Of a DNA stretch of 64,000 nucleotides, positions 9,171-14,713 are shown piece by piece. The stretch lies in the NCBI RefSeq assembly GCF_024502345.1, contig NZ_JALDNN010000001.1, one strand, 5' to 3'. Numbering within the stretch: position 1 is the first letter of the stretch; each line of letters starts with the position of its first letter. The notes under the pieces are model-generated. The model was not told where the DNA came from. It ran no database searches and saw only the letters and a program-made list of their open reading frames with translations. Position numbers and translations under genes: made by a program. Source of the stretch: Escherichia coli. GTDB lineage: Bacteria; Pseudomonadota; Gammaproteobacteria; Enterobacterales; Enterobacteriaceae.

Positions 9171-9737
9171 TTATTTGACCAGCTCAGGTGTTACCTGACT
9201 CACCGCATTGGTGTAGTAAGGCGCACCCCAGCCCGGTTCCGGCCAGAATGCACCATAGCCGTAATCCCACAGGTTATAGGTGGTATTAACCACTTCTCTC
9301 AAATGCCACACCTGGATGCCCTGCATATTCACTTCCAGGAAGTTATACGGGACTTTATTGATAAAGCCTGGTTGTTCACCCTGAATGGTACCGAGGATGG
9401 TAACAAAGTGATTACGATAGTTCACTGGATCAAGGAAGCCGCTTTGTCTGGCGAGCAGTCGGCCCTGATAGTTGGCTTCAATATCAGGCTTCGCATAGCT
9501 ATCCAACGGTAATACAGCGATTTCTAACAACGTATCCGTTTTGCCATTGATAACGTTGATAACCTTCCCACCAAAGCGCGCTTGTTGACCAACATATAAC
9601 CCCGGCTGGTTATGAACAGCAACAAAACTTTTTTGAATATCAGGTTGGTTATTGCCTTTGATATTTTGCGGAATTGAACTACATGCGGCAAGCAAAAATG
9701 AAAGGCTGAGGATGAGTGCACCTTTTGTCATGTTCAT
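9171..9737 (-). CDS. slp: Starvation-inducible outer membrane lipoprotein Slp, 188 aa
   Basis: ORF 9171..9902 trimmed to the internal ATG giving MNMTKGALILSLSFLLAACSS (lipoprotein signal peptide with lipobox). Confidence 0.92.
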   Translation of the reverse strand: MNMTKGALILSLSFLLAACSSIPQNIKGNNQPDIQKSFVAVHNQPGLYVGQQARFGGKVINVINGKTDTLLEIAVLPLDSYAKPDIEANYQGRLLARQSGFLDPVNYRNHFVTILGTIQGEQPGFINKVPYNFLEVNMQGIQVWHLREVVNTTYNLWDYGYGAFWPEPGWGAPYYTNAVSQVTPELVK

Positions 9738-9983
9738 GTTACTATCCTTATCAACAAATATTAAAACCATAATAGATATTTCTTTATAGTTTTCATCTGA
9801 TTCTGAGGTGATATGCCTGATAGTAACGTAAACCTGTCTGATGTTTATATCCCTTCTGTTTAGTTCAATTCCGTTATTTTGGGGCGTGGTATGAGTATCC
9901 ATCGCCCAATAATATAACCCTTTGTTTTAAAATTACATAAAATCTATTTTTATTCAATGATTATAAAGTGCTAATAATCAATA

Positions 9984-11207
9984 TTATGGTATTATATTCT
10001 GATAATGATTTGATAAGCGAATTCTTTTGCCAGATGGTATTTCTATTTCCACCCCATAATTTATATCTTTTTCATTAGGCAGATCTCTCTTTAAATAAAA
10101 GGGGTATGAAATCTTTTCGGGTTGAAGTGTCTCGTAATGAAATGCTATGAATTCATTTTTAGACATTGTTGCCCATTTTTGAATTTTATTGTATAGAGAG
10201 GGTGTTGTAAACTCTTGAAGTTGTTTATAACATATTTTTTTGAACTCTTGCTTATATTTTAATATGTCATCAAATGAAAGATTCACTACCTTTGCCTCTA
10301 AGAAATCAATTATTCTCGAAGCAATTTCCGCTTTCGCGCGTAAAGAGTTGTCATTAATAGTTAACAATGTAGAAAACAAGCCATTGATTTGTTTGTCAAG
10401 ATGCTGTTCATATTTATGTAGTTTGGGGATGGGATTTTCCTTGTGTGAAAAAATAGTGTTAAATAAATTTGCGTCAGTGAAATTTATATTAAGTAGATCT
10501 TCAAAATAAAAATTTGATAAGGTTAGGACTAGCCTGGACATATCTTGCCCTGTCATGTTGAAATCAATAAAGTCGCATCCAGCAAGGGCTTCCATCCTAT
10601 TTTCATTTTCACTGTGCTCAATATACAGCTTCGCCATTTTTAAGTACAAGCTTTGAATGTCTCTTATATCAGTTGGTAAGTCAGCTCGTTGCCCAGCAAA
10701 ATTTTTATTATCGGAAGAAACGGTTTGGACACTGAATCTTTCGGGTATTCCTTCTTCTACGAGAATTTTAGTTATGATTGGATTGTTGGGTTCTGGATTA
10801 ACGACAACAATGATTTGACATACAGAATCCTTATCCTTTTCGTATCTAATGTTATGAATCTGATTAAGTATTGATTGTGTCTGTTGCGTAAGTGGTGTCG
10901 AACTTATCGTTTCAATGTTATTAATAAGACTTACAAGTTGAACCACAACTTTTGAGTAGTCTGCATTTGTATATGTGGTGTTCGTGTGGCATGCATTAAT
11001 TTGTTGGAGTTGTTGTTGCGCTAAATCAAATTGTTCAGGGTTGTATCCTTCTCCAGAGAATGTGGAATTAATGGGTTGTTGTTCTTCCCAATTATCACAA
11101 GGCCACTTCGGTGTGTCTGGCGTTTTAACATTATCGGTATTTGTTGTGCAGTTATAAATATCGCCGTGATATGTATTTATTATACCTGGGGTAAAGTCAA
11201 TTGACAT
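9984..11207 (-). CDS. yhiS: Uncharacterised AT-rich protein YhiS, apparently intact (407 aa)
   Basis: Uninterrupted 407-codon ORF in a strongly AT-rich segment between slp and arsC; N-terminus [20 protein letters not shown]...; assignment by position and recollection of YhiS. Confidence 0.75.
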
Positions 11208-11685
11208 AACATTCCTTATTCATCATCTGTTTTATGCTAAGGTTTTTAAATTGGATAATTAGAACAGGAATGGATTTTCTTCTACACACAATAAATATAA
11301 TGCGTTATATCTTCCTGATATAATTACCTTTAAATTCCCTTTCATTTCCACCCGGTAATATTTGTGTATAAAAAAAAGGGCAGTGATAGTATCGTAAAGG
11401 AAAACGTTAACAACTATCAAAAAGCGCTCATTTTAAAAAGTTATTATGTTCTCTGATAGTGTGTGAAATGATATTTTTGTGATGTTTTAGGTGTGTAATA
11501 ATAAAATGGGTTAAGGTATCTTATAATTATTTAATAATTTGTTGTGTAAATCACTGATAAATCATAATCCAGTACGTCTTTAAACTACTGCACTGTATCG
11601 CTGATAACTAAGCAGCTCACTGATACACCATGCTGGACGCGATAATTGGAATCTCACGCAGGGAGTACTGTGTAAATAGCAAAAT

Positions 11686-11787
11686 CGCCTGATGCGCTAC
11701 GCCTGTCAGACCTACAAATAACATACAATTCATCGAATTTTCATAACATTGTAGGTCGGATAAGACGCGCCAGCGTCGCATCCGACA
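11686..11787. repeat. REP/BIME-type extragenic palindromic elements (two REP units in opposite orientation)
   Basis: gcctgatgcgctacgcctgtcagacctaca and tgtaggtcggataagacgcgccagcgtcgcatccgac resemble the E. coli REP consensus. Confidence 0.7.
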
Positions 11788-11835
11788 TAAATAAAGCGCA
11801 CTTTTCTAACAACCTGTGGGGGGGATATAGCCGCT

Positions 11836-12261
11836 TTATTTCAGGCGCTTACCCGCTTCATCAACCACTTTCTCGCCATCTTCCTTGGTGAATGCGCCTT
11901 TTTGCGCATCTGGCAGAATTTCCAGCACCACTTCTGAAGGGCGGCACAGGCGAGTTCCCAGCGTCGTCACCACAATCGGGCGATTAATCAGAATCGGGTG
12001 CTGAAGCATAAAGTCGATTAACCGATCGTCAGTAAATTTATCTTCCGCAAGGCCCAGCTCCTCATACGGTTCGACGTTTTTACGCAGCAGCGCGCGTACG
12101 GAAATCCCCATATCGGCAATGAGTTTGACCAGTTCATCGCGCGTTGGCGGAGTTTCCAGATAATGGATAATGGTCGGTTCTGTGCCGCTGTTGCGGATCA
12201 TCTCCAGCGTATTACGCGACGTGCCGCAGGCCGGGTTGTGATAAATGGTAATGTTGCTCAT
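11836..12261 (-). CDS. arsC: Arsenate reductase ArsC, 141 aa
   Basis: ORF translation MSNITIYHNPACGTSRNTLEMIRNSG... (Spx/ArsC family, catalytic Cys in NPACGTS). Confidence 0.96.
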   Translation of the reverse strand: MSNITIYHNPACGTSRNTLEMIRNSGTEPTIIHYLETPPTRDELVKLIADMGISVRALLRKNVEPYEELGLAEDKFTDDRLIDFMLQHPILINRPIVVTTLGTRLCRPSEVVLEILPDAQKGAFTKEDGEKVVDEAGKRLK

Positions 12262-12273
12262 ATCAGTATCTCA

Positions 12274-13563
12274 TTACAAAGTGAAAGAGAGACGTAGCGC
12301 CAGCGCAGCCAGCGTCACAAACAGCACAGGCAGGGTCATGATAATCCCTGTACGGAAGTAATATCCCCAGCTGATAGTCATATTCTTCTGCGAAAGTACG
12401 TGCAGCCAGAGCAGCGTTGCCAGGCTACCAATCGGGGTGATTTTCGGCCCCAAATCGCAGCCAATCACGTTGGCATAAACCATCGCTTCTTTGATAACGC
12501 CAGATGCCGTGCTGCCATCAATGGACAACGCGCCAACCAGTACCGTCGGCATATTGTTCATAATAGAAGAGAGGAAGGCGGTGAGGAATCCGGTGCCGAG
12601 CGTCGCGGCCCACAGGCCGTTATCCGCCAGCACGTTGAGTACGCCAGAAAGATATTCCGTTAATCCGGCATTGCGCAGGCCATAAACCACCAGATACATG
12701 CCGAGCGAGAAGATGACAATCTGCCAGGGTGCACCGCGCAGGACTTTACCCGTATTAATCGCATGACCGCGTTTAGCGACGACAAACAAAATCAGCGCGC
12801 CCACAGCTGCAATGGCGCTCACCGGAATGCCGAGCGGTTCCAGGACGAAAAATCCCACCAACAGAAGCAGTAAAACAACCCAGCCAGTTTTGAACGTAGC
12901 AGGATCTTTAATCGCTTCTGCGGGAGATTTCAGCAGCGCCTTGTCGTAGTTCTGCGGAATATCTTTGCGGAAATAGAGATGCAGCATCACCAGCGTGGCA
13001 ACAATTGCGGCGATATCCACCGGCACCATCACCGAGGCATATTCGCGAAAGCCGAGGCCAAAGAAATCTGCGGAAACGATATTCACCAGGTTGGAGACAA
13101 TAAGCGGCAGGCTGGCGGTATCGGCAATGAATCCGGCCGCCATTACGAACGCAAGCGTCGTGCCTTTACTGAATCCTAAAGCCAGCAGCATGGCGATGAC
13201 TATCGGCGTCAAAATAAGCGCCGCGCCATCATTGGCAAACAGGGCCGCAACGGCGGCACCGAGCAGGACAATCCAGGTAAACAGCAAGCGACCGCGTCCA
13301 TTGCCCCAGCGTGAAACGTGCAGCGCTGCCCATTCAAAAAAGCCGGACTCATCCAGCAGCAGGCTGATGATAATAACGGCAATAAACGCAGCCGTCGCGT
13401 TCCAGACGATATTCCACACCACCGGAATATCACCCGGATGTACCACGCCCGTAACTAACGCCAGTACTGCGCCGAGCGTTGCACTCCAGCCGATGCCTAA
13501 ACCTTTCGGCTGCCAGATAACCAATACAATGGTCAGGACAAAGATAGCACCTGCCAGTAACAT
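12274..13563 (-). CDS. arsB: Arsenite/antimonite efflux permease ArsB, 429 aa
   Basis: Full-length polytopic membrane ORF directly upstream of arsC; ArsB-like sequence. Confidence 0.96.
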
Positions 13564-13616
13564 AATGCCTCCCGGAAAAACACATATGCAAATCCATATG
13601 TGTTTAGATAAATTTT

Positions 13617-13970
13617 TTAACTACAAGTGTTCTTACTGTCTACGGAACAATTTTGTCTGGCCAGGTTGCGGACAATCACCTGAACCTTTTCCTGTTCGCA
13701 TCGCCAGGCCTGCTCAATTATTTTCGCGGCCCATGATGGAATATGCGGTGATAAGCGGTAATGAACCCACTTACCCTGCTTGCGATCCAGCAACAAACCG
13801 CTTTCACGAAGAAGCGCCAGATGGCGGGAGATCTTGGGCTGCGACTGGTCGAGAGCAGTGCAGAGATCACAGACGCATAACTCTCCCAGCTCGCTGAGCA
13901 GTAAAACGATGCCCAGACGGGTTTCATCGGCAAGAATTTTGAACAGTTGGATGGGTAACAGAAATGACAT
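13617..13970 (-). CDS. arsR: ArsR/SmtB-family arsenic-responsive repressor ArsR, 117 aa
   Basis: ORF translation [37 protein letters not shown]... (metal-binding ELCVCDL motif, winged HTH). Confidence 0.95.
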
Positions 13971-14119
13971 ATTGCGCTCCTGATTGTTGCAGGTAGTGTC
14001 TCTCTTCGAAGCGGATAAGTCAAAAACATATATGGTTTAACGAATGTGTATGTGCAGAGGAAGGTAATAGGTGTGAATTAAGCGTTGGCTATTCATTTGA
14101 AAGGAGGTCTGAATCAGGA

Positions 14120-14205
14120 CGTAAAAAAACCGACTTTGCGTCGGTTTTTTACTTTCCAGCCCAGAGTTGGTGGCTCTGGCTGGAGTGAGAATGCCCACAT
14201 CTAAC
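14120..14205 (-). ncRNA. agrB: agrB-like small antisense RNA (repeat copy nearest arsR)
   Basis: Block shared with the dinQ leader (ctggctggagtgagaatgcc...) on the opposite strand to dinQ; putative -35 ttgcaa / -10 tagtat on the minus strand; hairpin plus U-run at 14123..14150. Ends approximate; agrA/agrB naming from recollection of K-12 order. Confidence 0.55.
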
Positions 14206-14351
14206 GGTTCAATACTATTAGCCAGTGGCTAACATTGCAAGCGTTAGCGATTTCTTCAGCTGGAGAAGGGACAGTTTGCTATACATGTTGGTGAAAGAGG
14301 ATTTATATACTTTCATCGGGTCGCTGCCGTACCAGGCTTTGTCCGAATCCG

Positions 14352-14442
14352 GATGTAAAAAAACCGACTTCGCGTCGGTTTTTTTACTGTTCAGCCCTGA
14401 GTTGGTGGCTCTGGCTGGAGTGAGAATGCCATCATCTAACGC
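14352..14442 (-). ncRNA. agrA: agrA-like small antisense RNA (repeat copy nearest dinQ)
   Basis: Second copy of the same repeat with its own putative -35 ttgcaa / -10 tagcat and terminator hairpin at 14355..14385; ends approximate. Confidence 0.55.
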
Positions 14443-14502
14443 ATCAATGCTAATACCATACTGAAACTATTGCAAGGACATGCTGGTTTTATAACCTGAA
14501 TA

Positions 14503-14522
14503 TACTGTATGATTATCCAGTT
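14503..14522 (+). promoter_or_regulatory. LexA operator (SOS box) in the dinQ promoter
   Basis: tactgtatgattatccagtt contains CTGT-N8-CCAG, one mismatch from the CTGT-N8-ACAG consensus, upstream of the dinQ peptide ORF. Confidence 0.8.
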
Positions 14523-14713
14523 AGCTCTGAGGCATTTTCACTCTGGTAATGCGCATAAACGCTTTCAAAGTCCTGGTCAGAAGTACGGGTGGTGCCGTTA
14601 ACTGATGCTCTGGCCGGAGTGAGAATGCCATTATCTAACAATAGGGCATGCACCGTGACAGGCAGTGGATGAGTAAGCGGATGCATTCTCACTCCATCGC
14701 ATGGAGAAAACGG

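Follow-up and report, generated by a model that had tools for sequence, protein, structure and literature searches.

An intact allele of yhiS, an AT-rich and weakly constrained orphan gene at the edge of the acid-fitness island of Escherichia coli

Nearly all studies of gene function in E. coli are carried out in K-12, which is unable to reveal the function of yhiS because its copy of the gene is dead. What, then, is the gene that stands intact at this locus in other strains, and has it been kept for anything? The window analysed here, 64,000 nucleotides of E. coli chromosome, carries yhiS as an intact coding sequence at 9984..11207 on the minus strand. The frame runs uninterrupted from an ATG start through 407 codons to a stop, as an earlier sequence-only reading of this DNA had reported, and it is preceded by a Shine-Dalgarno sequence, AAGGA (11213..11217, minus strand), 5 nt ahead of the ATG. 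A 407-codon open frame in DNA of 34% GC is not a chance occurrence, because the probability of 407 stop-free codons, estimated from base composition with about 7% stops per codon, is roughly 1e-13. The gene lies between arsC (11836..12261, minus strand), its upstream neighbour, and slp (9171..9737, minus strand, annotation transferred), its downstream neighbour. Both are on the same strand as yhiS and both served as control genes, slp as a conserved one. The gene order in the window, hdeA (6958, plus strand), hdeB, yhiD, dctR (minus), slp (minus), yhiS, arsC, arsB, arsR and gor, agrees with the hdeA-hdeB-yhiD-dctR-slp-yhiS-arsCBR-gor order annotated in MG1655, BL21 and other loci. Over 100% of its length the protein was 71-99% identical to database entries from E. 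coli and Shigella, among which one bears the name YhiS, and the gene occupies the arsC-slp position of its orthologues; the exact protein sequence is already present in public E. coli records. Overall, yhiS, an AT-rich orphan at the edge of the acid-fitness island, is present here as an intact allele. As for the neighbouring slp, the mechanically called ORF (9171-9902) has 243 aa against 188 aa for annotated slp in related loci, and its upstream extension is probably untranslated because annotated slp in those loci starts at 9737.

Alignment to the MG1655 locus agreed with the earlier statement that K-12 carries a disrupted yhiS. The gene is annotated there as two pseudogene pieces flanking an IS5 transposase, and the insertion, 1195 bp of IS5 together with a CTAA duplication, falls at the window equivalent of 10459/10464. 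At this position (10459..10464, without strand) the window has ATAA in place of the CTAA target of K-12 and BL21. Over 10455-10462 the window allele reads TTAAATAA and the K-12/BL21 allele reads TCACCTAA; therefore, the K-12 CTAA target tetranucleotide is absent from the window allele. When IS5 was removed, K-12 yhiS differed from the intact BL21 gene by one substitution in 1400 bp, that is, the K-12 copy is the BL21 allele plus IS5, the CTAA duplication and this substitution. The window does have an IS5 of its own, located elsewhere as had been stated, at 26174..27368 (transposase ORF on the plus strand), with CTAA duplications on either side and 99.6% identity to the K-12 copy. It sits between an HI0933-like ORF (24964-26121) and a DUF2776 ORF (27638-28789), at a site where K-12 is not known to carry IS5. 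The contrast between an intact yhiS here and an IS5-split yhiS in K-12 is a strain difference already annotated and published. In other papers the gene figures solely as a K-12 pseudogene that has not been characterised and among the eleven IS5 sites, and the presumed O157 locus tags Z4907 and ECs4376 yielded no papers. Studies of yhiS are better done in BL21 or IAI1, both of which have intact copies, than in K-12.

The window gene is nevertheless not the K-12 gene minus IS5. The allelic difference is far larger, which the sequence-only reading overlooked. K-12 yhiS (b3504) and its intact RefSeq orthologues, for example WP_000020596.1 of BL21, represent the same gene and share its locus and its length of 407 aa, but the window copy falls into another allele class. 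It was 86.6% identical to K-12/BL21 yhiS in nucleotides and 76% in protein, thus differing by 13% and 24%, respectively, while it was 99.8% identical to the IAI1 copy and to the copies of other genomes. Sliding identity to K-12 was 99-100% from hdeA through slp and in arsC, and fell to 78-85% across 10103-10902. This hyper-divergent core of yhiS (10103..10902, minus strand) was evident in both sliding and segment identities. The divergence peak lay inside the coding sequence and decayed to both sides, and the adjoining non-coding spacer was 3-6.5% diverged, less than the gene core. The allele patch measures roughly 1.7 kb. In a conserved neighbourhood, a local peak of divergence within a species could hardly be expected to be much sharper.

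A megablast search with the window coding sequence against 5,426 complete E. coli genomes found some match in 5,413. Identity to the window sequence was at least 99% in 398 genomes, including IAI1 and E110019, 95-99% in 27, 90-95% in 1053 and 80-90% in 3935. The distribution is multimodal and the classes are discrete. Among the YhiS proteins of the species identity ranged between 71% and 99%, and almost every full copy had exactly 407 aa. All divergent alleles that we examined occupied the same slot between arsC and slp.

The strongly AT-rich character noted from the letters held up in the composition check. The yhiS coding sequence had a GC content of 0.339 and a GC3 of 0.301, the second lowest among the 44 long ORFs of the window, compared with ORF medians of 0.542 and 0.621 and a GC content of 0.505 for the window as a whole. 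In a 500-nt profile, GC was 0.29-0.36 over 9500-11750 and 0.50-0.55 in the ars/gor flank. The AT-rich region of some 630 bp ahead of the gene was likewise found: the spacer at 11208-11835 measured 628 bp with a GC content of 0.349, or 0.315 without the REP elements beside arsC. It includes an AT-rich non-coding region (11208..11690, minus strand, GC 0.315) that is presumed to bear the promoter, and REP-type palindromic elements just downstream of arsC (11690..11790, minus strand), recognised from the sequence and from sub-threshold, partial matches to naRNA4 and the REP-derived ES036. Promoter-like hexamers upstream of yhiS were not enriched in a consensus scan (11 against 9.6 in shuffled sequence), a consensus scan for terminators at yhiS found none, and no Rfam family matched in the upstream spacer. 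Two other AT-rich ORFs of the window (29010-30662 and 30923-32545; GC 0.34-0.37, GC3 0.29-0.33) both matched DUF4049, and the first also DUF6860. When a relation of yhiS to these DUF4049 proteins was tested, no sequence relation was found.

An AT content well above the genome average, a mark of DNA silenced by H-NS or StpA, was thus found for yhiS. The island neighbours slp-dctR and hdeAB are xenogeneically silenced and AT-rich; yhiS is likewise AT-rich and adjoins the island. A sentence in a 2026 preprint, citing earlier ChIP data, names yhiS together with the slp-dctR genes beside it among the high-affinity StpA sites of K-12. On the strength of that sentence, yhiS is therefore probably silent in laboratory culture. 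The probable silencing proposed in the earlier reading gains indirect support here, although the binding named in the preprint sentence was measured in K-12 and not in the present strain.

Could the block be a recent, strain-specific horizontal acquisition? Its GC3 of 0.30 against 0.62 in the window and its orphan status would suit such an origin. When 1.84 billion representative proteins were searched exhaustively with phmmer, all 35 matches were yhiS or yhiS fragments. Among 5.8 billion clusters, queried through a word index, every match bore the name of E. coli or Shigella. There was no yhiS match in 50,697 phage records and none in true plasmids, the three 'plasmid' matches being mislabelled chromosomes of 4.8-4.9 Mb. 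A contig scan across 100,044 species representatives returned one contaminant contig only, but its sensitivity is doubtful, as no E. coli representative was returned either. If the GTDB E. coli representative is a phylogroup B2 strain, it would be expected to carry a yhiS remnant like that of ST131. The single contig, NODE_179 of Ensifer sp. MPMI2T (409 bp, coverage 0.77), contained a fragment of the 3' end of E. coli yhiS, which almost certainly reflects contamination of the assembly with E. coli DNA. Judged by these searches, yhiS appears to be an orphan with no homologue detected beyond E. coli and Shigella; its absence from other Escherichia species is only tentative, the contig scan across species being of doubtful sensitivity.

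The distribution of the gene within the species already contradicts a recent acquisition, which we consider very improbable. yhiS lies at the same locus in 5413 of the 5426 complete genomes, and all its allele classes are syntenic. No mobility genes and no donor sequence were found for it, nor were there mobile-element relatives. No integrase, tRNA or direct-repeat boundary was detected at yhiS, and only REP elements lay on the arsC side; the patchy presence and mobile borders of a horizontal island were both missing. Its presence in the same arsC-slp slot in nearly every complete genome therefore marks it as an old resident and not a strain-specific import, and any acquisition must have been ancient, predating the diversification of the species. 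The earlier claim of horizontal acquisition thus survives only in part: the AT-rich composition and the phyletic restriction speak for it, but there is no donor, and a recent event is at odds with the presence of the gene throughout the species.

Old residence has not protected the gene from loss. yhiS is dispensable and has been inactivated repeatedly, by IS5, IS1, frameshift or deletion. The K-12 lesion consists of IS5 and one substitution. Several genomes with a window-type allele carry an IS1 insertion in the gene, and O157:H7 has either a 371-aa truncation or a frameshift. In ST131 about 920 bp were deleted (window 9917-10835), and the remnant, which contains a frameshift, retains the GDIYNCTTN pattern. 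At least 80% of the coding sequence was kept in 3995 of the 5426 complete genomes, and about 26% keep less than 80%.

These independent inactivations and shortened copies raise the view that yhiS is a decaying relic, by now effectively neutral, in which intact copies have not yet been hit and diversity reflects drift and recombination. The StpA site named for K-12 yhiS in the preprint sentence, suggesting silencing, points the same way. So does the finding that neither deletion of K-12 yhiS nor the ASKA clone affected the chlorhexidine MIC, although the K-12 gene is already broken. We examined the substitution pattern with Nei-Gojobori estimates on nine alleles, two of which (O157) are frameshifted and yield less reliable values. 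For yhiS, mean dS was 0.32, mean dN 0.12 and dN/dS about 0.38. The corresponding values were 0.036, 0 and 0 for slp, 0.07, 0.007 and 0.10 for dctR, 0.13, 0.016 and 0.12 for arsC, and 0.12, 0.0045 and 0.04 for arsB. The island neighbours are thus near-invariant within the species (slp dN 0, dS 0.036), while divergence in yhiS is about tenfold higher and the gene is often broken. Between the window allele and the other allele classes, dS was 0.26-0.61. Omega was below 1 in yhiS, with Fisher p values from 1e-4 to 1e-19 and 1e-6 or lower for most pairs. In sliding windows of 30 codons, computed on the six intact alleles only, pN/pS was 0.2-0.9 in every window, lowest around codons 177-296 and highest at codons 327-371 (0.86-0.89).

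The openness of the frame was compared with simulation. With random substitutions up to 13% divergence the yhiS frame stayed open in 0.08% of trials, and at 20% it never did, while the six alleles, 13-20% apart in nucleotides, were all open. Omega below 1 and the openness of the frame against this simulation therefore indicate that the protein is maintained by selection, though weakly. The gene genuinely codes for a protein, and the purifying selection on it is weak. The same results weigh against a neutral relic, namely the overall omega of 0.38 with its low p values in most pairs, and the retention of a 407-aa frame in alleles 13-20% apart in nucleotides, a state reached by chance in 0.08% of simulations or less. 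Drift, moreover, cannot account for a dS in yhiS that exceeds the values of slp and dctR many times over, and the adjoining spacer (3-6.5%) is less diverged than the core. As dS in yhiS is far above that of the adjacent genes, it is not explicable by relaxed constraint. That the high dS stems from local hypermutability of AT-rich DNA bound by nucleoid proteins is also unlikely: slp and dctR, likewise AT-rich and named with yhiS as a StpA site, are near-invariant, and the adjoining spacer is less diverged than the gene core. Weighing these points, we regard the relic as rather unlikely, even though the near-neutral pN/pS at codons 327-371 favours it, and the combination of this value with frequent pseudogenisation would be in keeping with an ongoing loss of function.

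The diversity of yhiS also has an internal structure. The alleles are mosaic: the four-gamete test was failed by 26% of informative site pairs, the Hudson-Kaplan Rmin was 43, and the nearest neighbour of an allele changed from segment to segment. A few deeply diverged allele classes exist in the species and recombine with each other. The pattern is that of old allele lineages shuffled by intragenic recombination, and the lineages may have been kept by balancing selection or may derive from unsampled relatives. This deep mosaic polymorphism is the only part of the yhiS finding worth follow-up. The gene is a reasonable candidate for screens of E. coli orphans with conflict-related or niche-specific functions.

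A stronger form of the balancing-selection argument would make yhiS a single-gene conflict locus under long-term balancing or frequency-dependent selection, acting for example in phage sensing, abortive infection, immunity or host interaction. The allele classes would then be older than the surrounding chromosome and reshuffled by intragenic recombination, and the repeat surface described below would recognise a fast-evolving partner; we think it rather improbable that this account is correct. Discrete and deep classes (dS 0.26-0.61) set inside flanks that are 99-100% identical agree with it, as do the divergence peak within the coding sequence, decaying on both sides, and the extensive reshuffling of alleles. 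Presence/absence and loss polymorphism is, in addition, typical of defence genes. Yet YhiS had no PADLOC or PHROGs match, no window of the gene had a pN/pS above 1, and yhiS is a single gene, with neither a partner gene nor a mobile context, that is probably silenced under laboratory conditions. The conflict locus as a whole seems improbable to us.

What the protein itself might do was examined through family searches, sequence and profile searches of the PDB, and structure prediction. The earlier statement that it has no recognisable enzymatic motif was upheld, as Pfam, NCBIfam, PADLOC and PHROGs all lacked a family above threshold for YhiS, and the PADLOC defence HMMs gave zero families at E up to 10. 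YhiS is acidic (pI 5.2) and hydrophilic, with an N-terminus rich in T, N, P and D; no transmembrane segment and no signal peptide were found. Its sole recognisable feature, overlooked earlier, appears to be a putative pentapeptide-repeat segment of ten consecutive units at residues 207-256 (10440..10589, minus strand), with (D/N)(L/F/M) recurring at period 5. The periodicity score of this segment was 17/20, which none of 20000 shuffles reached and none of which exceeded 13. The window protein scored 12.5 bits against PF00805 (E=0.12), below the gathering threshold of 20.2, and a sub-threshold match was obtained in 19 of 21 alleles, the best with E=0.037. A PDB search with the single sequence reached E of about 0.1 at best, and a family profile improved this to 0.0057. 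The five matches of the profile search were all pentapeptide-repeat proteins aligned to residues 202-256: Rfr23 (2f3l), which was the best with E=0.0057, TL15 (3n90) and three QnrB1 entries. In IMG, the identical protein carries the name 'YjbI with pentapeptide repeats'.

YhiS thus shares ten units, with (D/N)(L/F/M) in register, with PF00805 pentapeptide-repeat proteins such as Rfr23 (2f3l), TL15 (3n90) and QnrB1 (2xtw). It differs from them in that its match is sub-threshold, its tract amounts to about 2.5 helical turns, and the other 350 of its 407 residues match nothing. AlphaFold2 gave no usable model. The mean pLDDT was 37.4 for the full-length protein with 21 alleles and 41.8 for residues 180-407 with 12 alleles. 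The models had no β-helix in the repeat stretch, where pLDDT was 21-31, and residues 1-56 were modelled with low pLDDT and without secondary structure.

Effectors are typically encoded by AT-rich silenced genes, and the order of parts in YhiS, a low-confidence N-terminus followed by pentapeptide repeats and a C-terminal domain, resembles that of NleL/SopA-type effectors. YhiS might on these grounds be taken for a type III secretion substrate with an unstructured-looking N-terminus and a pentapeptide module. In NleL, an unstructured N-terminus precedes a pentapeptide β-helix (PMC3013003), and the YhiS N-terminus, rich in T, N, P and D, has no signal peptide and, over residues 1-56, low pLDDT and no predicted secondary structure. 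However, YhiS has no sequence similarity to any effector family, including NleL and SopA, no HECT-like domain and no link to a secretion system, and its repeat tract is four times shorter than that of NleL. The gene is intact in IAI1 and BL21, commensal and laboratory strains, yet truncated in O157:H7, and its fixed chromosomal position between arsC and slp is unlinked to LEE, ETT2 or prophage. An effector role is accordingly most unlikely.

Taken together, we consider it probable, with moderate confidence, that yhiS is an old, real, weakly constrained and dispensable orphan of E. coli and Shigella. The product would tentatively be a soluble, acidic protein of 47 kDa. Its residues 207-256 are predicted, with low confidence, to form about 2.5 turns of a pentapeptide-repeat β-helix. 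It may act by binding a macromolecular partner through the rigid surface of the repeat and not by catalysis, again with low confidence, and the allele diversity might then reflect selection on the interface with this partner. Against this explanation stand the PF00805 match, which is sub-threshold and spans only 50 residues, and the AlphaFold2 models, in which the repeat stretch forms no β-helix.

Further variation was seen on the arsC side of the locus. Some E. coli strains have an extra, divergent pair of genes for an HTH_20 regulator and an ArsP_1 permease between arsC and yhiS (around window 11523). The pair is missing from the window, K-12 and BL21. A class of locus matches with 84% coverage arose because some strains carry this pair. 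Beyond arsC, the stretch at 12900-14700, comprising the 5' part of arsB, arsR and the dinQ/agrAB spacer, was only 86-97% identical to K-12 and VREC0864, compared with 99-100% on the slp-hdeA side. From its identity profile, this stretch looks like a second, independent recombinant patch. For arsB, dS against K-12/BL21 was about 0.12. The arsR-gor spacer contained two full-length matches to AgrB-family antisense RNAs, at 14121-14204 and 14355-14439 (107 and 92 bits), which adjoin the dinQ toxin gene annotated in related loci.
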